Positions 1,288 to 54,055 of a stretch of DNA of 64,000 nucleotides are shown here, piece after piece. The notes below the pieces were generated by a model. It was given only the letters and a program-made list of their open reading frames with translations, was not told the origin of the DNA and did not search any database. The DNA lies in NCBI GenBank assembly GCA_023247275.1, contig JAHFGT010000002.1, positions 25,961 through 89,960 of the forward strand, in the 5' to 3' direction. A program made the translations under genes and the position numbers. This DNA is from Candidatus Omnitrophota bacterium. Its GTDB lineage: Bacteria; Omnitrophota; Gorgyraeia; Aquiviventales; Aquiviventaceae. How positions within the stretch are numbered: the first letter of the stretch is position 1; every line of letters starts with the position of its first letter.

Positions 1288-1368
1288 AGAGCTCAGAAGT
1301 CAGAGGACAGGGGTTGTCCATTTTGTCTGACCTCTGACCTCTGATTTCTGACCTCTGATTTCTGAACG
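1288..1368. repeat. Hairpin element built of 7-bp TCTGAYY units (family 2, copy a)
   Basis: AGAGCTCAGAAGTCAGAGGACAGG ... TCTGACC TCTGACC TCTGATT TCTGACC TCTGATT TCTGAAC GG, in the divergent region between 618-1265(-) and 1384-2574(+). The copy at 28373-28453 shares AGAGCTCAGAAG and the TCTGACCTCTGAACGG end. Confidence 0.8.
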
Positions 1369-10470: not shown

Positions 10471-10802
10471 GGCGCGTGGAAAAATTTCCGCACAAGAGTG
10501 CCCACTCGACTTCTCAGTTGCGAGTCTTGCAGCTCCATTGCCGGATTCTTGCCCGGCCGGATATTGATGAGCGCTCCATAACGAACCGTCTGCTGATCAG
10601 CAACCCAGTCAGCGCCCCAGACATCCTGCGGCTGACTACCATCCTCCAGAAGCACCGACTCACAATCGGCATGAAATTCGCCGCCCCCGGCCAGGATCCC
10701 CTGCCGGACATCGACGGCCACCTTGATGTAGGACTCATGCGCCTCGAGCATCTCTTGTACCTGCTTAGCTGTTGGAGCGTTCCGGAGCAAATGGATCGTC
10801 AT
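10467..10802 (-). CDS. DUF5674-like protein (cassette gene 3); alternative GTG start at 10835
   Basis: MTIHLLRNAPTAKQVQEMLEAHESYIKVAVDVRQGILAGGGEFHADCE...WGADW...INIRPGKN resembles, from memory, the uncharacterised DUF5674 family. The GTG at 10835 would overlap the upstream stop (GTGA). Confidence 0.55.
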   Translation of the reverse strand: MTIHLLRNAPTAKQVQEMLEAHESYIKVAVDVRQGILAGGGEFHADCESVLLEDGSQPQDVWGADWVADQQTVRYGALINIRPGKNPAMELQDSQLRSRVGTLVRKFFHAP

Positions 10803-10831
10803 GATCTGGCGTGTTCCTGACAGTCCGCGTC

Positions 10832-11371
10832 TCACTTGTCACGGGTTTCGATGCCAGGTCTCGGTTCCACTTCTTCCACTAACAACGCTTGATAACGTTT
10901 CAGAAATTGTCGGTCTTTCAAGCGGCCAGCGAGTTGTTTGGATCGCAGCAGTTTGCTGAGTCGGCCGACCTTGACTGGTGTTCCCTGAATGGTAATGGTC
11001 ACGGCATCCCGTACTAATGCGGCAAACAGGTACCCTGAGACCGCCAGGAAGAGCTCGACCATGAGCCCGTCTGGAGTCGTCGCGATCAGTGCCCGCCGGG
11101 CTCGGACCAGGGCCCGCAATGCTGCGGTATCGAATGGACCGTCGGATGTTGCGAGTGAGAACCCCAAATGGGAAAGCTGGTGGACCGCCTTCTGGACATT
11201 GGGCAGCGTTGGATTCACGAAGAGATCATAGTCCATCGTCGCAATCGCCTCGGATGCCCGCTGAGCGTAGTAGTTGATCCCGGACATTCCGATCACGACG
11301 TACTGGACTCCGACTCGATTCAAGGCCCGGACTGTCGCGAGGTAAGGATCTGCGAGCCGACGCGCGCTCAT
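10832..11371 (-). CDS. Minimal nucleotidyltransferase-fold protein (MNT/AbiEii/DUF6036-like; cassette gene 2)
   Basis: VQYVVIGMSGINYY...ATMDYDLFV, later LMVELFL, and C-terminal PVKVGRLSKLLRSKQLAGRLKDRQFL, a pattern typical of small NTases. Its ATG overlaps the HTH gene stop (ATGA at 11368-11371). Confidence 0.55.
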   Translation of the reverse strand: MSARRLADPYLATVRALNRVGVQYVVIGMSGINYYAQRASEAIATMDYDLFVNPTLPNVQKAVHQLSHLGFSLATSDGPFDTAALRALVRARRALIATTPDGLMVELFLAVSGYLFAALVRDAVTITIQGTPVKVGRLSKLLRSKQLAGRLKDRQFLKRYQALLVEEVEPRPGIETRDK

Positions 11372-11807: not shown

Positions 11808-12824
11808 TTATACGGTCCGGCCAACGGCTTTGGCAACCTTGCGGATTTCGGTGATCAGTTTGACGAACTTCTTGGGCAAGAGCGACTGCGGCCCATCGCA
11901 CAGCGCCACTTCAGGGTTGGGGTGGACTTCGATGATCAGTCCATCAGCGCCGGCCGCAATCGCGGCCTTCGCCATCGGCTCGACATACTCCCACTCACCG
12001 GTGCTATGACTCGGGTCGACAATGATCGGCAGATGGGAGAATTTCTTGATCACCGGGATCGCGGCCAGATCCAGCGTAAACCGGGTCTGCGTTTCAAAGG
12101 TCCGGATGCCCCGCTCGCACAGGATCACGTTAAAATTCCCTTGGCTTAAAATATATTCGGCCGCGAGCAGAAACTCGGTGATCGTCGCCGACAACCCGCG
12201 TTTGAGCAGCACCGGCTTGTGCAGTTGTCCGACCTCCTTGAGCAGCTCGAAGTTCTGCATGTTGCGCGCGCCGATTTGGATGATGTCCGCGTGCTGCTGG
12301 ACCATCTTCAGATCGCGCGTGTCCAACAGCTCGGTGACTACTCGCATCCCGGTCTCCTTCGCCGCCTCGCGCAACAGTTTCAGCCCCTCGTCGCGCAAGC
12401 CTTGGAATGAATACGGCGACGTACGCGGCTTAAACGCCCCCCCGCGCAACACCTGGGCGCCGGCTCGCTTCACCGCCCGAGCCGTCTCAAACAGCATCTG
12501 CCGGTTTTCGACCGAACACGGGCCGGCCATCATGACCAGCGCCTTACCGCCGACGCTGATCCCATCGCCCAGGTTGACCACCGTCGACTCAGGCTTGAAG
12601 TCGCGCGACACCAGTTTGTACGGTTTGAGCACCGGCATCACTTTCTCGACGCCGGGGATCACTTCGAGCGGCTGCACACGTAACGCGTCTTCCGGCCCGA
12701 TGACGCCGATAATGGTCCGCTCGGTCCCTTTGGACACCATCGGCTTCAGGCCGAGCGCTTTGATCCGATCCAGCACATGGTCGAGCTGCTGCTTGGTCGC
12801 GTCCGGCTTCAGGACAATAATCAT
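11808..12824 (-). CDS. aroF: 3-deoxy-7-phosphoheptulonate (DAHP) synthase, type I-beta with N-terminal regulatory domain
   Basis: MIIVLKPDATKQQLDHVLDRIKALGL... is a ferredoxin-like regulatory domain, followed by a KDO8P/DAHP-synthase barrel. GAGGAGGG lies 5 nt upstream of ATG 12824. The ORF track starts 7 codons earlier, at TTG 12845. Confidence 0.9.
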   Translation of the reverse strand: MIIVLKPDATKQQLDHVLDRIKALGLKPMVSKGTERTIIGVIGPEDALRVQPLEVIPGVEKVMPVLKPYKLVSRDFKPESTVVNLGDGISVGGKALVMMAGPCSVENRQMLFETARAVKRAGAQVLRGGAFKPRTSPYSFQGLRDEGLKLLREAAKETGMRVVTELLDTRDLKMVQQHADIIQIGARNMQNFELLKEVGQLHKPVLLKRGLSATITEFLLAAEYILSQGNFNVILCERGIRTFETQTRFTLDLAAIPVIKKFSHLPIIVDPSHSTGEWEYVEPMAKAAIAAGADGLIIEVHPNPEVALCDGPQSLLPKKFVKLITEIRKVAKAVGRTV

Positions 12825-13978: not shown

Positions 13979-14043
13979 GTGAACGGTTGACGGTGTACGG
14001 TGTACAGGGTCAGTACCGTACACCGTGAACTGTACACCGTCCA
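13979..14043. repeat. Octamer-unit palindromic element (family 1, copy b)
   Basis: GTGAACGGTTGACGGTGTACGGTGTACAGGG tcag TACCGTACACCGTGAACTGTACACCGTCCAC, between pheA and hisC. Confidence 0.75.
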
Positions 14044-14060
14044 CTCTCGGCCAACTATGC

Positions 14061-16627: not shown

Positions 16628-17626
16628 CTATTGACCAATGAGTCCGAAGGCCGCCTTCACTTCAGTGATGGTGTGGCGCGCGACACTCCGGGCCTTCTCC
16701 GCGCCGGCCTGGAGCATGCCTTCAATCTCATCGTATGATCCGCCGATCTTCGCCCGGATCTGACGAAACGGTTCGGTCGCCTGCACGATCACCTCGGAGA
16801 GTTCGCGCTTGTTTTGCACGCAGCCTCGGATCGATCGCCGGCACTCGTCGTGCGCGCGGGCCGCCGCGCTGGGCGCAAACGTGCCCCAGTAGCCGCACAC
16901 GTTGCACGTGTCTGGATGGCCAGGATCGGTCATCTTGATCCGAGCCGGGTCGGTGAACATCTTCTCGACGATGGCGCGGATCTTCTCCGGTGCCTCGGAC
17001 AGGTTGATCGTGTTGCCATAACTCTTCGACATCTTGCGCCCATCGGTCCCAGAGAGTCTGGGCGATTCGGTCAACAGTGCCGAGGGTTCAGGAAAGATCT
17101 CGCGCTTGAATAGGAAGTGCACTCGACGCACGATCTCTCGCGTCAATTCCACATGCGGTAACTGATCTTCCCCCACCGGCACCGCCTGGGCCTTGTACAG
17201 CAAGATATCCGCCGCTTGCAGCACCGGGTAGCCTAAAAACCCATAGGTCGTGAGATCTCGTCCCTCGATCTCGCGTAGCTGTTCCTTATAGGTCGGGACC
17301 CGTTCAACCCAGCCCAGCGGCGTCACAATCGAGAGCAGGGCAAACAGCTCGGTATGCTCTGGCACATCCGACTGCCGAAAGATCACACTGCGCTGTGGGT
17401 CGATCCCACAGGCCAGCCAGTCGAGCACATTCTCATAGCTCCAGGTGTGGATCTGCTGCGGCCGCTCATATTCGCTCATGAGCGCGTGGTAGTCCGCGAC
17501 CATGAAGAAACAGTCGTACCGCTCTTGCAGCCGTTTCCAATTCTGGAGCGCGCCGACCAGATGGCCGAGGTGCAGCTGGCCGGTCGGCCGCATCCCGCTC
17601 ACGACGCGCTGACGCTGCTCAGACAT
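16628..17626 (-). CDS. trpS: Tryptophan--tRNA ligase
   Basis: 332-aa ORF with HLGHLVG (HIGH) and KMSKS motifs. Confidence 0.95.
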   Translation of the reverse strand: MSEQRQRVVSGMRPTGQLHLGHLVGALQNWKRLQERYDCFFMVADYHALMSEYERPQQIHTWSYENVLDWLACGIDPQRSVIFRQSDVPEHTELFALLSIVTPLGWVERVPTYKEQLREIEGRDLTTYGFLGYPVLQAADILLYKAQAVPVGEDQLPHVELTREIVRRVHFLFKREIFPEPSALLTESPRLSGTDGRKMSKSYGNTINLSEAPEKIRAIVEKMFTDPARIKMTDPGHPDTCNVCGYWGTFAPSAAARAHDECRRSIRGCVQNKRELSEVIVQATEPFRQIRAKIGGSYDEIEGMLQAGAEKARSVARHTITEVKAAFGLIGQ

Positions 17627-17960
17627 GAGACAGGAGACCGGAGACTACATGCGCCCCCAAAGGCACTGTAACATTCTGGGCGCATGTACCCTGAGCGAAG
17701 TCGAAGGGTAACCCCTCGACGCGCTTTGCTTGCTCGGGGTAAAGGGAACCCTCTCGATGTTCAGATGCAATGTGGGTTCCATTTAGAGACCAGACACACC
17801 ATCGGGGGGCACGCAGGAAGGACACGCGTCTCACCACGTCTTCATAGCAGACCAAGATGACACATGCAGGGCAAGACCAGAGCAACCATAGAGCTGTTAC
17901 GCCGTCGATCTTCCAGAACTTGTCTTTTTTAAGTCTCCGGTCTCTGGTCTCCGGTCTGAT
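17627..17960. repeat. Composite element: inverted GAGACNG heptamer arrays flanking a 285-bp hairpin-rich spacer
   Basis: The left array is GAGACAG GAGACCG GAGACTA (17627-17647). The right array is GTCTCCG GTCTCTG GTCTCCG GTCTGAT (17933-17960). Internal stems are ACATGCGCCC/GGGCGCATGT (17647-17687), CCCTGAGCGAAGTCGAAGGG/CCCCTCGAC..GCTCGGGG (17689-17739) and GGAACCC/GGGTTCC. Confidence 0.75.
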
Positions 17961-17961
17961 A

Positions 17962-20331
17962 TCACGCAAGTTTCCGGGCCACCTTCTTCAGCTCCCAGGC
18001 TTCCAACAGATCGCCGACCTGCAGTCCAGGATTCTGACCCAGCAAGATGCCGCACTCCACGCCCTCCTGCACCTCGCGCACGTCGTCCTTCACTCGCTTG
18101 AGGCTCGCGATCTTGGTTTCTCCGACCCGATCCCGACCGCGAACGACCCGCATGGTGCAGTCCCGTCGAATCGAGCCTTTAATCACCATGCAGCCGGCTA
18201 CCACCCCAGCCTTGGAAACCTGGAACAACTTTCTGATCTCAGCGCGCCCGAGAAATGTTTCTTCAATCGTCGGCTCCAGCAACCCTTCGATCGCCGCCTT
18301 AATCGCGCCGACCAGCTCGTAGATGATGTGGTAAATATGCACATCGACCCCTTCGGTCGCTGCCAGCACTTGGACTTTGGGCTCGATCCCGACATGGAAT
18401 CCGACGATGATCGCATCCGACGCCGCCGCCAGGATCACATCAGACTCGCTGATGTCCCCAACGCCGGTGTGCAAGATCCGAAACTGCACCTCTTCCTTTT
18501 CAGTATCCAACTTTTGCAGGCTCTGCACAATCGCTTCGAGCGAGCCCTGCACGTCGGCTTTGACGATGAGCCGAAGTTCCTTGAGCTTGCCCTCGGCGAT
18601 CTGCGAGTGGAGCTCTTCGAGGGTGATCCGTTTCGGAGGCGCGACCGTCCGCTGCTCTTGCTGTTCTTTCCGCTGCTCGGCGATCTGCCGAGCTAATTTC
18701 TCATCGTCGACGACCATGCAGCGATCCCCAGCCCGCGGAACTTCGGGCAGTCCCAGAATCTCGACCGGCTTGCCTGGCCCAGCTTCCTTGATCCGGTGCC
18801 CGCGATCGTTGGTCATGGCGCGCACCCGACCCACCACCGCCCCAATCAACACGGAATCGCCAATCCGCAACGTGCCCTGCTGGATCAGCAACGTCGCAAC
18901 CGGACCGCGGTCCCGGGTCTGCTTGGCTTCGATCACCACCCCGTACGCTGGAATCGTGGGGTCAGCTCTGAGCTCCAATAATTCCGCCTCCAACAACAGC
19001 ATCTCTAACAGTTGATCAATGCCTTGCCGGGTCCGCGCTGAAACCGAGACCATAATCGTCTTGCCGCCCCAGTCTTCGCTGATCAGTTCATATTGGGTAA
19101 GCTGCTGTTTGATCTTTTGCGGGTTGGCCTCTGGCTTGTCCATCTTATTGATGGCGACCACGATCGGCACCCCGGCCGCCTTGGCATGGTCGATGGCTTC
19201 GATGGTCTGTGGCATGACCCCGTCGTCGGCCGCCACCACGAGGACGACGATATCGGTCACGTTCGCGCCCCGCGCGCGCAACGCCGAGAACGCCTCATGG
19301 CCTGGCGTATCGAGGAAGGTGACATGCCCTTTCTCGATCGCTACCTCATACGCTCCGATGTGCTGCGTAATGCCGCCGGCCTCTTTTTCAGCCACCTTGG
19401 CCTGTCGGATCGCGTCCAGCAAACTGGTCTTGCCATGGTCCACATGGCCCATGAAGGTCACGACCGGGCCGCGTGGCACCAACTTCGCAGGGTCAGGCTC
19501 GGCCAACTGCAACAGCTGTTGTGCTGGCGTCGGCTCTGGCAAGAGGTCGAATCCGAACGCTTGGGCCGCCTTCGTCGCGGTCGCCTCATCCAACGGCTGT
19601 ACGATCGAGGCAAAGACCCCGTGCTGTATCAGCGTCTTGATCAGATCGGTTCCTTTGACCTCCATCTTCGCGGCTAAATCTTTTACGGTAATAGGAAATC
19701 GCAGTGAGAGCTGGCGCGCCGGCGCTGGCGGCGCAGTGGTCGTGGTGGGCAGAGTCGCTGTTGCGGACGATGCATCGGTCACGACGGCAGCCGATGTGCT
19801 GGCAGGCGCAGCGGCTGGCTCTTTGGGCTTGGCGGGTGCGGGGGGCGCCTGCACCGACGCAGCAGCTTTCGGTGCCGACGGCGCAACGACAGCCGTGTGC
19901 ACCGTTGACCGCGTCGTCGATGGCGCGGTGACAGGACGTGCTGGCGGTGTCATCGGCCGGGCGGTCGTTGGCTCGGCTATTTTTGCCGGCGTAGACCCGC
20001 TCGACCGCGGCGCTGTTGTCGGCTTTGCTGGAAACTTGGCCGCTGGCGTGGATTTGGGCGCAGCCGCCGTCAATGCGCTCGCGCTTGCTGGCTTCGCCCC
20101 GCCCCCTGGCCGGCCTGGCGCTGCAGACCGACTGACCGTTAGCTTGGGCGGCGCGGGTTTCAGTTTGGCCGCCACCGGTTTTTTCGCCGTCAAGGCCTTG
20201 CGAATCCGATTCACCGAATCCGCATCCAGCGTGCTGGAGTGCGCCTTCGCCGAGATCTTGAGTTCTTTCAACTTGACCAACAAATCCTTCGAACTCAGGT
20301 TCAAAACCTTAGCCAGCTCGTGCACGCGCAT
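17962..20331 (-). CDS. infB: Translation initiation factor IF-2
   Basis: 789-aa ORF with an Ala/Pro-rich N-terminus and a G domain ([21 protein letters not shown]). Confidence 0.95.
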
Positions 20332-22157: not shown

Positions 22158-23879
22158 CTACGACGATGCAAAGTTGTCAAGCAGTTTATGGATTTGCGCC
22201 GGGAGGAGCTCCTCGCTGACCCGTTGTTTTTCCTTCGTGGCGCGCAGGCACAGTTCCAGTTGGCGCGCTTGTTGCCATGCCTTGCCGACGACCACCTGCA
22301 CCGGAATTCCGACCAGGTCAGCGTCCTTAAGCTTGCTCCCTGGCGATTGGTCCCGATCGTCCAGCAGCACCGCCAGTCCGGCGTGGGATAACTGCTGCTC
22401 AACCCGCTCGGCCACCTGAACCGCTTCGGCGTTTTGCGTGTCCATGATGCTCACGATCACCTCCATGGGGGCTAAGGCACGCGGCCAGACAATCCCCTGC
22501 TCATCATGGTGTTGCTCAATCGCGGTCGCCACGATCCGGTTCATCCCGATGCCGTAGCACCCCATCATCATCGGCTTGAGTTGCCCGGCCGGATCCTGAA
22601 ACACCGCACCCAGCGCTTGACTATATTTCGTGCCCAACTTGAACACATGACCGACTTCGATCGTGCGCACAAACGTGAGTGGGCCGCTGCAGGTTGGGCA
22701 CCTGTCCGCCTCGGTCACGACCCGAACATCCGCCACGATCGATGGCTGGAAATCCCGTCCTGGATTGACGTTGGTGTGATGCGCGTCGGTGATATTCGCC
22801 CCGGTCACCGCGTTGACGACCCCCATCACCGCATGATCGGCGATCAACCGCACATTCAGCAACTTCACCGGCCCGGCAAACCCGACCGGGGCGCTGGTCA
22901 GTCGCTCAATCGTTTGGGCGCTCGACAGCCGAATGTCGGGCGATCCAATCGCACGCGCGAGCTTGGCTTCATTGACTTCATGGTCTCCGCGAACCAACAC
23001 CGCCACATGGCCGTTGTCCACATCATAGACCAGCGTCTTGATCAACTGCCTCGCTGGCACCTTGAAGAACTGGCTGACCTGCTCGACCGTGTGCTGCCCT
23101 GGCGTCTTCACCGTCTCCATCGGCTGTTGGACTTCTGCTGTCTGCTGTCTGCTGTCTGCTGTCTGCTGGTACCTCGCCGCCTCCAGATTCGCCGCATAGC
23201 CGCAGGTCTGGCACTGCACCACCCGGTCTTCGCCATACGCTGACGGCGCCATGAACTCGTGCGATACCTCCCCACCCATCATGCCTGGATCCGCCTCGCA
23301 CGCCAGCACAGTCAGCCCGCATCGCCTGAAGATCCGGTGATAGGCGTCAGACATGATCTGGTAGCTGCGATTGAGGCCATCGACGTCCACATCAAAGCTG
23401 TAGGCGTCTTTCATCAGGAATTCTTTGGAACGGATAATCCCAAACCGGGGACGAGGCTCATCGCGGAACTTGTGTTGGATCTGGTACACCGTCATCGGCA
23501 ACTGCTTGTACGAACGGACCTCTTTGAGCAAATCGGTGACCACTTCCTCGTGCGTCGGGCCCAGCGCCACCTCTTTGCCGGTGCGATCCTTGAACCGGAT
23601 CAGCACATCGCCCAGCACGCTGTACCGGCCGGTCTGTTTCCACAACTCCACCGGCTGCATCGCCGGCATCAACAGCTCCTGGGCCCCGGCCTGGTCCATC
23701 TCCTCGCGCACGACGGCCGCCGCCTTGTGCAACGCGCGCAACCCCAACGGCAGGTAGGTGTACGCCCCAGCGCCCAGCCGGCGGATCAATCCAGCCCGCA
23801 TCATCAGCTTATGGCTGATCGCCTCAGAGTCCTTCGGGTCCTCGCGTAGCGTCGGCAGAAAGTAGTGTGACCAGCGCAT
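22158..23879 (-). CDS. proS: Proline--tRNA ligase (bacterial type with INS editing domain)
   Basis: MRWSHYFLPTLREDPKDSE... begins at ATG 23879. It has class II motifs and an editing insertion. The ORF track starts 3 codons earlier, at GTG 23888. Confidence 0.95.
   Translation of the reverse strand: MRWSHYFLPTLREDPKDSEAISHKLMMRAGLIRRLGAGAYTYLPLGLRALHKAAAVVREEMDQAGAQELLMPAMQPVELWKQTGRYSVLGDVLIRFKDRTGKEVALGPTHEEVVTDLLKEVRSYKQLPMTVYQIQHKFRDEPRPRFGIIRSKEFLMKDAYSFDVDVDGLNRSYQIMSDAYHRIFRRCGLTVLACEADPGMMGGEVSHEFMAPSAYGEDRVVQCQTCGYAANLEAARYQQTADSRQQTAEVQQPMETVKTPGQHTVEQVSQFFKVPARQLIKTLVYDVDNGHVAVLVRGDHEVNEAKLARAIGSPDIRLSSAQTIERLTSAPVGFAGPVKLLNVRLIADHAVMGVVNAVTGANITDAHHTNVNPGRDFQPSIVADVRVVTEADRCPTCSGPLTFVRTIEVGHVFKLGTKYSQALGAVFQDPAGQLKPMMMGCYGIGMNRIVATAIEQHHDEQGIVWPRALAPMEVIVSIMDTQNAEAVQVAERVEQQLSHAGLAVLLDDRDQSPGSKLKDADLVGIPVQVVVGKAWQQARQLELCLRATKEKQRVSEELLPAQIHKLLDNFASS
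23135..23169. repeat. Five tandem CTGCTGT heptamers inside proS (coding strand CAGCAGA)
   Basis: CTGCTGT x4 plus CTGCTGG, translated as QQTADSRQQTAE in a variable ProRS linker. The same unit recurs in kdsB (57810-57837). Confidence 0.85.
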
Positions 23880-24009
23880 CAGCCCCACATCCAGTCGGGA
23901 AGGTCAGAATCAATATCATCGGGGATCAGCCGTTGATCTTCATCTCGCCGGCAAATCATCGCAAACGTACGGCTCCAGCCCAGGCGTAGTTGTCGATTTG
24001 ATCCTCGGT

Positions 24010-28372: not shown

Positions 28373-28453
28373 GTCAGATGTCACAGGACAGAGCTCAGAA
28401 GACAGCAACACCTCACTCTGATCTCTGACCTCTACCTTCTGACCTCTGAACGG
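28373..28453. repeat. Heptamer-unit hairpin element (family 2, copy b)
   Basis: GTCAGAT GTCACAG GACAGAG CTCAGAA GACAGCA ... CTCTGAT CTCTGAC CTCTACC TTCTGAC CTCTGAA CGG, between dxr and cdsA. Confidence 0.8.
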
Positions 28454-46019: not shown

Positions 46020-46711
46020 GGGATTCGAATCGCAACAGACGACCGCATGGATTGACTCGCCTGACCTGCCTCAAACACGCCATTGCCGGTTTGCACGACC
46101 ATCGCCACATCAACGCGGCGGATCGCCGGATCAGGGGGGCAGGCCGGCGTCAGCAACGCACCGGCCTGATTGCGATACTGAAACATCGGACCTGACGCCA
46201 GCACGCGGGCGCTGCCCAGCGCGTCATACGGCACCAGCTCCTCGGTCGGCCCGGCCGGCACGCTGGCACACGTGGTCCCAGCCGGCACCAACGCCCGCGC
46301 AAGAGCCGCGTTGATCGTGTTCAGGCGCACCAGCACCAGTTGGCCATCAGAGCTCACATATCCCACCCGAACATCCTCGGTCAGCCACAGCGCCGGTTGA
46401 AGCCCGGTCCCGCCGAGCGGCACCCGGCGGATCGCAAAGCGCAAACCACGGATAGGATCAGCCTGGCCTGGCAGCGTCGAGAATCCCCCTTCGATCAGTT
46501 GCTGCATCACCTCAGCGGCGACATGGTCGGTGGCAACCGCCTTGGGCACAAATACCAGTGTCCGCACGCCGAAGAGAATGATTGGCGGTACCAAGGCAAA
46601 CAGCACTCCGGCAATCACCAGCACGAGCACCAGCTCTGGTAAGGTCCATCCCCCTTGACATCGACCGGCAAGAACTGATTCGTGTACGGGTGAACAGGTG
46701 TACGGGTGCAC
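46016..46711 (-). CDS. Minor (pseudo)pilin; start uncertain
   Basis: Class III signal ...RCQGG|WTLPELVLVLVIAGVLFAL, with Glu at +5. The nearest in-frame canonical start is GTG 46711, inside repeat 46677-46776. The ORF track starts at 46822. Confidence 0.6.
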   Translation of the reverse strand: MHPYTCSPVHESVLAGRCQGGWTLPELVLVLVIAGVLFALVPPIILFGVRTLVFVPKAVATDHVAAEVMQQLIEGGFSTLPGQADPIRGLRFAIRRVPLGGTGLQPALWLTEDVRVGYVSSDGQLVLVRLNTINAALARALVPAGTTCASVPAGPTEELVPYDALGSARVLASGPMFQYRNQAGALLTPACPPDPAIRRVDVAMVVQTGNGVFEAGQASQSMRSSVAIRIP

Positions 46712-46776
46712 GGGTCGTCGATCCGCAGGTGTTGGCGATCCGTCCACCTGTTCACCGGTACACTTGTTCACGAATC
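46677..46776. repeat. Octamer-unit palindromic element (family 1, copy c) with terminal inverted repeats
   Basis: GATTCGTGTACGGGTGAACAGGTGTACGGGTGCACGGG ... CCACCTGTTCACCGGTACACTTGTTCACGAATC. The first 32 nt are identical to the copy at 53978. Confidence 0.8.
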
Positions 46777-47270: not shown

Positions 47271-48361
47271 GGTTGTCGCTGCTTCAGCTCTTGCCATCCT
47301 GGCCGGTCGCTCACCGGCGAGGGGTCTGAGCTGATGGTGGCGATCTCCTGCAGGTCGGTGATCGAGACATCGTCGTCATTGAGCCGGTATTCGGCTTGCA
47401 ACCGGCGCCACACCGGAAATGGCAACTGACCTCGGCGCACCTCGCCGACCGCCTTGATCGTGAAATTCGCCGATGACTGGGTCGGATTGGCCGGGACAAA
47501 TCGCGCGCGGCGGGTCGAACCGTCTGTCATCGTGAAGGTGATCTCGATCCAGTTCTTCGTCGTCATGGTCGTCGTGGCAAACCAGATCTGGTTTCTCGTC
47601 CACAGATCACTGGCCGCGATCGTTTGCGTGGGAATCGCAATCGGCACACCCGAGCCGATCGGAGCGCAGCCAATTGATCGCCAATCCGCCCCGTTGCCAT
47701 TAATGTCCAGCCGCACGACCCCCTCACCCGCTCCAACAGGATCCCATTGCACGCTCACCTGGTTGAACCCGACGACCATTCCATCAGGCGGTGTGTCGCT
47801 CTGCAGCACATTGCGCAGCGTCCAGTCTTGCAATCGGTGGCGCTGGGTTCCGCCGCATGAGCTGCCGGCCGGCGCGGTCGCGAATGTGGCCGGAATCATC
47901 GCCGCCAAGAGAAAATCTCCGGCCTGGCCGCCGAGAATAAACACATCGTCATCCACCGGACCCGGCGCGCCTAAATCCGCCGGCACGGGATATTCGCCGA
48001 GACGGATGTTGTTGCCATCGGTTCCTCCTGGCCCATCGAAGCGGACATCATAGGCGGCTTGCATCACGCCGGCTTGGGCCAGATAGATGGCCTTGGCCTG
48101 CTGTTGCTGCAGGCTCGCGCGCTTGAGATGTTCGGCCAAGAGAATCGCAAGGCCGGTTCCGGCAAGCGCGACGATGACAATGAGGATGACCAAGCCGGCT
48201 AGCAGCCAGCCCGCCGTCGGAGGTTGGATACGACCGGATAACTTACTGCAATGTGCCGTTGGTGGATGAATAAGTATAAGTCTTGGATGTCGAAGAGACA
48301 GGATTGGTGAAGGTATAGGTCGTCGACGTAGTCTGCGTCCAGGTGGAATCCAAGATCCCAC
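47267..48361 (-). CDS. PilX-N/GspK-like large minor pilin; start uncertain
   Basis: TM helix WLLAGLVILIVIVALAGTGLAILL followed by SLQQQQAKAIYLAQAGVMQAAY (PilX_N-like). As drawn, the ORF overlaps the pilin gene by 119 nt. Confidence 0.6.
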   Translation of the reverse strand: MGSWIPPGRRLRRRPIPSPILSLRHPRLILIHPPTAHCSKLSGRIQPPTAGWLLAGLVILIVIVALAGTGLAILLAEHLKRASLQQQQAKAIYLAQAGVMQAAYDVRFDGPGGTDGNNIRLGEYPVPADLGAPGPVDDDVFILGGQAGDFLLAAMIPATFATAPAGSSCGGTQRHRLQDWTLRNVLQSDTPPDGMVVGFNQVSVQWDPVGAGEGVVRLDINGNGADWRSIGCAPIGSGVPIAIPTQTIAASDLWTRNQIWFATTTMTTKNWIEITFTMTDGSTRRARFVPANPTQSSANFTIKAVGEVRRGQLPFPVWRRLQAEYRLNDDDVSITDLQEIATISSDPSPVSDRPGWQELKQRQP

Positions 48362-48683
48362 CTGGAATCACCAATTCAAAGCACGCTTTTGTGGTGCACA
48401 CGGTCCCGTTGGCTTCGAGCGTGCCGCCGGTAATGCCGTTCCAGGTCGCCTCCAGGTTCGGCGGGAAGGTGCCGGCCCCGCCTCCGACCTGATTCTTGGC
48501 TGCGGTGGTCATGACTCCGGCGCGGACAGATCCCACGATGGCGTCGCGGCGAGAATCGTACGCTTCGGTGCGGATATCCACGAATCGCGGGATCGCGATG
48601 GCGGCGAGAATCCCGACGATGGCAATGACGATCACCAATTCCACGAGCGTGAACGCACGGCCTGGCCTACGATGGCGTGCCAC
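48243..48683 (-). CDS. Type IV pilin / major pseudopilin, copy 1 (downstream copy)
   Basis: 146 aa. GTG start. MARHRRPGRA|FTLVELVIVIAIVGILAAIAIPRF..., with a Ser/Thr-rich C-terminus. Confidence 0.85.
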   Translation of the reverse strand: MARHRRPGRAFTLVELVIVIAIVGILAAIAIPRFVDIRTEAYDSRRDAIVGSVRAGVMTTAAKNQVGGGAGTFPPNLEATWNGITGGTLEANGTVCTTKACFELVIPGGILDSTWTQTTSTTYTFTNPVSSTSKTYTYSSTNGTLQ

Positions 48684-48725
48684 GTCTTCTCCCTGTCGTT
48701 ATCCACCGACCGGGACCACACGCAG

Positions 48726-49166
48726 TTACTGCAAGGTGCCGTTCGTCGATGAATAGGTATAGGTCGTCGACGTCGAGGACACAGGGTTCGTGAAGGTATA
48801 GCTGGTCGCGGTGGTCTGGGTCCACGTTGAGTCGAGGATCCCACCTGGAATCACCAATTCAAAGCACGCTTTTGTGGTGCACACGGTCCCGTTGGCTTCG
48901 AGCGTGCCGCCGGTAATGCCGTTCCAGGTCGCCTCCAGGTTCGGCGGGAAGGTGCCGGCCCCGCCTCCGACCTGATTCTTGGCTGCGGTGGTCATGACTC
49001 CGGCGCGGACAGATCCCACGATGGCGTCGCGGCGAGAATCGTACGCTTCGGTGCGGATATCCACGAATCGCGGGATCGCGATGGCGGCGAGAATCCCGAC
49101 GATGGCAATGACGATCACCAATTCCACGAGCGTGAACGCACGGCCTGGCCCCTGATGGTTCCCCAT
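48726..49166 (-). CDS. Type IV pilin / major pseudopilin, copy 2 (upstream copy, stronger RBS)
   Basis: 146 aa from ATG 49166, preceded by GAGGAGGGGAAGG. MGNHQGPGRA|FTLVELVIVIAIVGILAAIAIPRF... Confidence 0.85.
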   Translation of the reverse strand: MGNHQGPGRAFTLVELVIVIAIVGILAAIAIPRFVDIRTEAYDSRRDAIVGSVRAGVMTTAAKNQVGGGAGTFPPNLEATWNGITGGTLEANGTVCTTKACFELVIPGGILDSTWTQTTATSYTFTNPVSSTSTTYTYSSTNGTLQ

Positions 49167-53977: not shown

Positions 53978-54055
53978 GATTCGTGTACGGGTGAACAGGT
54001 GTACGGGTGGTCATTCGCAGCTGAACAACCCGTACACCTGTACACCCGTTCACGG
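53978..54055. repeat. Octamer-unit palindromic element (family 1, copy d)
   Basis: GATTCGTGTACGGGTGAACAGGTGTACGGGTGG ... CCCGTACACCTGTACACCCGTTCACGG, between kdsD and kdsC. Confidence 0.8.

Follow-up and report, generated by a model that had tools for sequence, protein, structure and literature searches.

The window analysed here is a stretch of 64,000 nucleotides from a Candidatus Omnitrophota bacterium (assembly GCA_023247275.1, contig JAHFGT010000002.1), and the element under study is a short heptanucleotide array within its gene for prolyl-tRNA synthetase (ProRS). The gene, proS, lies on the minus strand (22158..23888) and was identified from the list of open reading frames (ORFs), from Pfam and from homologues as encoding a ProRS of the bacterial type that contains an INS editing domain. 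The 576-amino-acid ORF contains the Pfam domains tRNA-synt_2b, tRNA_edit (the INS editing domain) and HGTP_anticodon; the database copy of the protein (P0001) begins at M4, which corresponds to position 23879. The nearest name-bearing homologues are labelled Candidatus Omnitrophica or Omnitrophota, and the best hit outside the window's own contig is 76% identical.

The array lies inside this ORF at 23134..23168 on the minus strand and consists of five perfect copies of CAGCAGA on the coding strand (TCTGCTG x5.0 on the plus strand). Tandem Repeats Finder reports a period of 7, 5.0 copies, 100% matches, a score of 70 and the unit TCTGCTG, and a direct reading of the sequence agrees; the preliminary description of this DNA had recognised the five-copy array, though its coordinates (23135-23169) were one base off. 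With 5.0 perfect copies the array is a heptanucleotide simple sequence repeat (SSR), a class that begins at three head-to-tail copies. A pattern search finds four overlapping exact matches at the site, compared with 0.62 expected, and in an exact-period scan covering periods 4 to 12 it is the sole perfect array of at least three copies across the 64 kb.

The array is read as ...CGYAANLEAARY-QQTADSRQQTA-E-VQQPMETVKTPG, with Arg-Tyr (RY) preceding QQTADSRQQTA. The codon for Q241 begins at 23168, the array spans Q241-A251 (the array-encoded stretch within ProRS being QQTADSRQQTAE), and its final two bases open the codon for E252. Both this translation and the placement of the array in the variable linker that follows the CGYAANLEAA segment had been proposed before and are borne out. 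The inter-domain linker comprises residues 239-257 (RYQQTADSRQQTAEVQQPM; 23118..23174, minus strand) and is predicted to be coil. In an AlphaFold2 model built on 41 orthologues (mean pLDDT 82), residues 241-257 are coil and residues 245-249 have a pLDDT below 50; the modelled linker is preceded by the strand that comes after the CxxC...YAANLEAA segment and leads into the editing domain's first strand. The closest solved structure, the ProRS of Enterococcus faecalis (2J3L/2J3M), has a matching linker that is three residues shorter. The array thus occupies a generic variable inter-domain linker and, since this linker has a counterpart in E. faecalis, is not an added insertion. Four cysteines of the protein (residues 226, 229, 397 and 400, a CxxC before the linker and a CxxC after the editing domain) are invariant in 120/120 aligned orthologues, which suggests that the INS domain may have a metal-binding knuckle at its base. 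The near-invariant Cys240, a fifth cysteine, directly precedes the array and is replaced by Tyr in the window genome.

All three sense frames of CAGCAGA give the same cyclic peptide, QQTADSR, as expected for a heptamer array from the preliminary description; the antisense frames give SAVCCLL, and no frame contains a stop codon. The absence of stops on both strands, which that description had offered as the property making such arrays tolerable inside genes, is real and yet does not set this unit apart, because 66% of heptamers at 61% GC share it; as an explanation of the array it was rejected. The property that is filtered is the orientation, which yields a hydrophilic peptide. Directly 3' of the array, at 23127..23133 on the minus strand, the sequence reads AGTCCAA, which may be a relic of a CAGTCCA-type unit widespread in the orthologues.

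The mRNA around the array is less structured than shuffled sequences (z = +2.0), with no inverted arm and no hairpin, and at the gathering threshold no Rfam family matches anywhere in the window. These two results argue against an RNA element at the array, and that candidate was rejected. A slippery heptamer for programmed -1 frameshifting was also considered and set aside, CAGCAGA being unlike X XXY YYZ and no structure lying downstream.

Heptamer arrays at the orthologous proS site

DNA of orthologous proS genes was retrieved by scanning a metagenome collection for the degenerate back-translation of CGYAANLEAA, which gave 57 loci. An array was called strong when its score for period 7 reached at least 17/21 within the 80-nucleotide linker. 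Fourteen of 30 distinct Omnitrophota-type proS genes (47%) carry a strong heptamer array in the linker. The same score is reached in 0/30 genes over the remaining ~1.6 kb outside the linker, and in 0/30 for periods 5, 6, 8 or 9. No period-7 signal was found at the site in 65 proS genes from other phyla, among the matches listed (maximum 13/21); this control set came from a scan of genome contigs with the ProRS alignment, and the matches listed are 45-54% identical and include no close Omnitrophota.

The periodicity is also evident in the proteins. Among 117 orthologues, the amino acid identity of linker residues at spacing i/i+7 is 0.297, compared with 0.07-0.09 at spacings 5, 6, 8 and 9. The linker is 21-22 amino acids long in 88 of these 117 proteins, none carries the seven additional residues that a three-unit expansion would produce, and the linker is equally long in orthologues with and without the periodicity. 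This agrees with the earlier expectation that copy number must either be very stable or change in steps of three. An alignment of 41 orthologues likewise displays a near-constant linker length and, in many of them, a seven-residue period whose peptide differs each time: QTSDIRH-QTSE, QPPAPSP-QPPAE, QTTDHRP-QTTDE, QPSAVSH-QPSAE and PPSTFHL-PPSTE, for instance. The proS reading frame is intact in essentially all loci examined, the exception being a short contig (L081) with stop codons just after the motif.

The units underlying these peptides are diverse. They include CAGCAGC (L097), CAGCCCC (L104 and L114), CAGTCCG and CAGTCCA (L098), (C/T/G)AGTCCA (L088, L089 and L124), CAGACAT and CAGACAG (L115 and L120), CCAAGCT (L091), CCCGAAC (L111) and CAGCCTT (L128). 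In the syntenic genome GCA_964372775.1, whose ProRS is 71% identical to that of the window, a perfect CCTCCAG x4.7 array lies at the linker site. The preliminary description had reasoned that the periodicity would be a coincidence if close relatives encoded the same linker without it; the reverse was found, in that relatives encode different peptides, each with a heptamer periodicity of its own in the DNA. Several units form a network of small steps (CAGTCCA, CAGACCA, CAGACAT, CAGACAG), the last of which is the window's CAGCAGA rotated, and some arrays are mosaics, such as CAGACAT, CAGACAG, CAGACAG, CAGACTT in L115 and CAGTCCG x2 followed by CAGTCCA x2 in L098. These mixed arrays look like sweeps in progress, and the unit patterns are what would be left by the concerted evolution of one inherited array. 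By eye, most arrays appear to open with an in-frame CAG directly behind the codon of the near-invariant Cys (Tyr in the window); most also close, again by eye, in the conserved Glu codon.

Related arrays elsewhere in the genomes

The proS array is not peculiar to the window genome. Its site is shared across the clade, with units that change, and the array also belongs to a family of heptamer arrays found throughout the genome. A mismatch-tolerant detector, with 20 dinucleotide-preserving shuffles as the null, finds six period-7 arrays in the window compared with 0.0 in the shuffles, while periods 5, 6 and 8 to 12 give 0 to 2. Related Omnitrophota-type loci contain 10.7 period-7 arrays per 100 kb compared with at most 1.5 for other periods, so that period 7 is over-represented relative to neighbouring periods both in the window and in the related contigs. 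The gene context of the window arrays was assigned from Pfam-supported genes only. A classification into coding and intergenic arrays by long stop-free frames was dropped as uninformative, because at 61% GC nearly every array falls in some long frame.

Arrays within a genome tend to share units. The proS unit of the window is found again 34 kb away in the first arm of a two-arm insertion in kdsB, and in GCA_964372775.1 the proS unit CCTCCAG makes up a perfect second kdsB arm, while the near variants TCCAACC and CCAGCTT fill other arrays. In two further contigs the linker unit recurs upstream of proS itself, beside the inferred start in L114 and ~190 nucleotides before the start in L064. The mean minimum distance from a proS unit to the nearest array of its own genome is 1.33 substitutions, which in a permutation across genomes has p ~0.0008 (n=9 genomes, a small sample with a clear trend). 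The proS arrays are also the more perfect ones: their mismatch fraction is 0.064, compared with 0.119 for the other, mostly intergenic, arrays (Mann-Whitney p = 0.002), and 6/18 proS arrays are perfect compared with 5/56 of the others, the proS array of L091 being counted among the others in this comparison.

The kdsB gene (CMP-KDO synthetase; Pfam CTP_transf_3) lies at 57503..58321 on the minus strand, and the insertion sits in the KdsB loop between YFSRAQIP and HIGIYGY. Arm 1 (57811..57835, minus strand; AGACAGC/AGACCGC x3.6) has the same cyclic unit on the same strand as the proS array. Its letters from 57835 to 57811 are AGACAGC AGACCGC AGACAGC AGAC, and they encode QQTADSR, as the preliminary description had noticed. 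Arm 2 (57736..57774, minus strand) contains about 4-5 units of the CCAGTCT type, encodes PVSSLQSPV, and is inverted and partly complementary to arm 1. Among KdsB orthologues the loop measures 26-31 amino acids without an insertion and 41-67 amino acids with one, the latter built from other units, and presence and absence alternate among close sisters on the kdsB tree (P0128 vs P0160, P0141 vs P0155, P0172 vs P0205). The kdsB arms of GCA_964372775.1 (L140) fold into a hairpin of -42.5 kcal/mol (z = -4.6), whereas those of the window have diverged and fold weakly (z = -1.0). Between strains of 99.7% identity (L138) the kdsB arrays are identical. In L140, more heptamer arrays (10788-10886 and 12602-12673) overlap the kdsB 3' end, the spacer between kdsB and pyrG and the start called for kdsA, which may mean either extra coding-region arrays or miscalled gene starts.

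Other members of the family in the window are intergenic. They include a TCTGACC/TCTGATT x5.7 array (1326..1365), a CTCTGAC-type array of 4.9 copies with indels (28416..28449), and an inverted pair between infB and trpS. The left arm of this pair (AGACATG/AGACAGG/AGACCGG on the plus strand, 17619..17646) abuts the trpS start codon; the right arm (GTCTCCG/GTCTCTG on the plus strand, 17932..17959) lies just downstream of the infB stop codon (17962-17964, minus strand), which the extended arm reaches. The two arms are 86% complementary and 285 nucleotides apart. The spacer as a whole is ~335 nucleotides long, and the 285 nucleotides between the arms contain no convincing gene; a sub-threshold Rfam match to sroE in this spacer (E = 0.31) was taken as chance. 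Periodic inverted pairs can pair in several registers, and register-shifted pairing is in this way available to the heptamer-array family.

Several contigs from Planctomycetota and other groups contain period-7 arrays too, frequently in inverted pairs that enclose a short intergenic spacer. Contigs from Planctomycetia, Pirellulales and groundwater Deltaproteobacteria contain such intergenic inverted heptamer pairs (L007, 15276-16061; L022, 11749-11858; L043, 9936-9969 and 18707-18737), and the L007 pair (AGGGATT/GGGGATT) is of the G-rich heptamer type reported as G-quadruplex-forming in Nostoc.

Origin and maintenance of the proS array

Heptamers are the over-represented long SSRs of prokaryotes, for instance in Calothrix, in Nostoc (GGGGA(T/C)T), in Xanthomonas (GGGAATC) and in Beggiatoaceae (TAACTGA). 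Most of them lie between genes, close to gene ends; some form inverted pairs and a few are translated in a stop-free orientation, and polymerase slippage on a 7-nucleotide footprint has been offered, as a proposal only, for their cause (PMC4692102, PMC4679880). The arrays of the window resemble these families in the enrichment of period 7, in lying mostly between genes near start or stop codons, in their hairpin-capable inverted pairs and in the small number that are translated. The described families, however, have one dominant unit per genome and are reported as intergenic, whereas the Omnitrophota genomes contain several related units each, and one of their arrays occupies an orthologous, in-frame site in an essential gene where the unit turns over. 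The STRR units of cyanobacteria are CCCCAGT, TTGGTCA and CAACAGT. With the unit CAGCAGA and a Candidatus Omnitrophota host, the proS array is an analogue of that family and not a member.

The closest precedent for a translated heptamer array, and the clearest, is neuO of E. coli K1 and phage CUS-3, in which an array of 5'-AAGACTC-3' is translated as a repeating heptapeptide and full-length protein is made only at a frame-compatible copy number, divisible by three; copy number ranges from 3 to 53 and the gene is OFF in 66% of genomes (PMC13001214). Like neuO, the proS array is a 7-nucleotide tandem array in a coding sequence, is translated as a heptapeptide repeat and obeys the same frame arithmetic. 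In neuO, however, the array is long, hypervariable and at the 5' end of an accessory, phage-borne gene that it switches ON and OFF, whereas the proS array is internal to a housekeeping gene, has about 5 units, is near-constant in length in the 117 orthologues and changes its unit rather than its copy number.

The Rickettsia palindromic elements (RPEs) and other MITE-like elements inserted in frame provide a comparison for the kdsB insertion: in both cases a conserved enzyme tolerates repetitive DNA that is translated as an additional peptide on its surface (PMC10969869), and the kdsB insertion is found in some orthologues and missing from others. The kdsB insertion adds length, as members of that class do, and forms a hairpin in L140, with a weak fold in the window. 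RPEs measure about 100-150 bp, and both their family sequence and the peptide they encode are conserved. The proS array, unlike them, is 35 nucleotides long and shares no sequence conserved between genomes; lacking an inverted arm and adding nothing to the length of the linker, it falls outside the class. Literature searches covering Omnitrophota and Planctomycetes found no relevant account of heptamer or tandem repeats, and the papers cited above do not list Omnitrophota among the hosts of heptamer arrays. What is new here is an in-frame-locked heptanucleotide repeat that keeps its position throughout a clade even as its unit is replaced, with signs of exchange with other arrays of its genome.

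We consider it probable that the array is an in-frame-locked heptanucleotide SSR in the ProRS linker that is homogenised at the DNA level, selection filtering only frame, length and orientation. It would then be a translated SSR filling an unconstrained linker between the ProRS catalytic core and the INS editing domain, and would belong to a period-7 family that pervades this Omnitrophota genome and its relatives, mostly between genes and in many cases as inverted pairs. The periodicity would be made and renewed in the DNA, with variant units spreading by slipped-strand realignment or short-patch gene conversion at unchanged net length, probably including exchange with other arrays of the same genome. 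The reading frame would act as one filter, since a single unit gained or lost shifts the frame, which is lethal; for the same reason, homogenisation at proS must be length-neutral, and candidate events are slippage realigned before fixation, repair of a slipped heteroduplex, and short-patch conversion from another array. The length of the linker would be a further filter: about five units, equal to 10-11 codons, fit between the Cys/Tyr codon and the Glu codon. Orientation would be the last, as translation of the C/A-rich strand yields peptides rich in Q/P/S/T/A and translation of the other strand would yield C/L/W/V-rich ones. If selection filters only these properties, QQTADSR is a by-product without a sequence-specific role. 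The array and its translation, its position in a disordered linker, the orthologous arrays with other units, the constant length and the unit sharing within genomes are shown by the data; how the array is homogenised, that its peptide is neutral and that it arose once, long ago, in the clade of 65-76% identity is what we infer from them.

Several observations weigh against this interpretation. The neighbour-joining tree of the orthologues, which is star-like and poorly resolved, scatters the unit types. At least three very distant proS genes (~50% identity), which also came from the scan of genome contigs, have arrays in the same linker: AAGAAGC/AACTAGC in an Omnitrophota contig (L001, 5522-5560), AGGGTCC interrupted by a GC-rich hairpin in another (L064, 10722-10741), and AT-rich GNAAAAT in the otherwise GC-rich gene of a Lentisphaerae metagenome-assembled genome (L063, 10713-10750). 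These suggest that the ProRS linker is a recurrent harbour for heptamer arrays across PVC-related phyla, and repeated colonisation fits them better than a single ancient origin does. The greater perfection of the proS arrays is not predicted by passive slippage, since the most frequent homogenising events, in which a single unit is gained or lost, are lethal there. In addition, the sole strain-level comparison (L138) spans kdsB, with proS lying outside it, and the mechanism of homogenisation is itself inferred.

The linker might instead have been colonised repeatedly by a mobile or templated heptamer element, a selfish DNA that inserts into or overwrites the linker in frame in the manner of RPEs, with each lineage's array arising independently from the repertoire of its own genome. 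The unrelated units at one linker in very distant lineages speak for such an element, as do the match of proS units to other arrays of the same genome, the presence or absence of the kdsB insertion among close sisters, the occurrence of a second element, a small GC-rich hairpin found within or next to the arrays of several proS and kdsB genes (described below), and the known in-frame insertion of palindromic elements (PMC10969869). We nonetheless regard colonisation as unlikely for proS: orthologues that lack an array have linkers of equal length, so nothing has been added; the proS array has neither an inverted arm nor a hairpin; its boundaries and codon phase are, by eye, largely conserved; the units differ in what appear to be steps with mixed intermediates; and no transposase-like or target-site signature was seen. 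A related and still less likely proposal is that an active, length-preserving process, templated or by gene conversion, rewrites arrays genome-wide with genome-specific units, even in essential genes, and that the proS linker is a conserved landing or rewriting site. Such rewriting would explain why the frame-locked proS arrays are the most perfect, why proS and kdsB share units and why unrelated arrays lie at one spot in distant lineages.

The remaining alternatives place selection on the array itself. The periodicity could serve as a functional nucleic-acid element, either a periodic platform on the DNA or mRNA to which a factor binds or an unstructured or slowly decoded stretch that paces translation between domains. 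The unusual perfection of the proS arrays, their conserved position across a large clade and the weak structure of the region are in keeping with this, and heptamer direct repeats have been proposed as regulatory sites in other bacteria (PMC4679880, PMC4692102). The units, however, vary between and within genomes, which excludes a single sequence-specific binder; the 16 other orthologues in the set of 30 have weak periodicity or none, without loss of the gene; and there is no Rfam match in the window, nor any conserved structure. We judge a functional element of this kind improbable. A contingency locus of the neuO type, in which heptamer slippage toggles proS by phase variation, would account for a non-triplet repeat within a coding region and has neuO as its precedent, and is disfavoured as very improbable. 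A housekeeping aminoacyl-tRNA synthetase is neither dispensable nor environment-facing, the array is internal to the gene, beginning at residue 241 of 576 rather than close to the 5' end, about 5 copies is few beside the range found in neuO, whose frequent OFF state also contrasts with the frame intact in essentially all proS loci (L081 excepted), the linker length is near-constant, and the kdsB arrays are unchanged between strains of 99.7% identity. Finally, selection on the protein for a heptad repeat or a low-complexity linker, with the DNA periodicity as its shadow, draws on the hydrophilic and disordered character of the linker in all orthologues. We count this reading, together with chance, as refuted: the peptides are wholly different by lineage (QQTADSR, QPPAPSP, QSTVHSP, QTSDIRH and PPASSLQ, among others) while the 7-nucleotide periodicity is perfect at synonymous positions as well, and chance is excluded by the shuffles and by the site and period controls.

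A homogenised, frame-locked SSR at proS would constitute a natural reporter, in which dozens of lineages each give a separate view of unit replacement; homogenisation seen there must preserve length because changes in length are lethal. It would also mean that a repeat process in the DNA, rather than protein-level selection, can dictate part of the sequence of a universal enzyme, which is relevant to alignment, to phylogeny and to the interpretation of low-complexity linkers in metagenome-assembled genomes. Should the sharing of units within genomes be borne out by complete genomes, it would suggest that dispersed bacterial microsatellites evolve in concert.

Further repeats

The small GC-rich element that accompanies the heptamer arrays is a palindrome of about 31 nucleotides, GGCCCGCC-N9-13-GGGGCGGGC(C/G), nested in or beside them. 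Copies are found at L120 874-904, L123 5373-5403, L106 315-345 and 12947-12974, L109 535-565, L126 2483-2513, L133 2217-2247 and 5450-5480, and in the proS linker of L064. The element is in frame in the proS linker (...HPGPP...AGAGRPP...) and in the kdsB genes of some relatives (P0166, P0156), and most proS linkers of 32-34 residues are explained by it; no convincing copy is present in the window.

A second repeat family in the window has a period of 7-8. Its units resemble GTGTACGG/GTGAACAG and, as complements of these, ACCCGTAC/ACCTGTAC, and it occurs at 522-607, 13979-14044, 46682-46715 and 53982-54054. At three of these four sites it forms intergenic inverted pairs that are 78-90% complementary, with loops of 8-13 nucleotides and several pairing registers, and the pairs resemble REP-like or terminator-like hairpins. 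The window also contains a tandem duplication at 48243-49150, made up of 1.9 copies of a 483-nucleotide unit that are 94% identical (Tandem Repeats Finder score 1655); it overlaps minus-strand ORFs and is probably a repeated protein domain.

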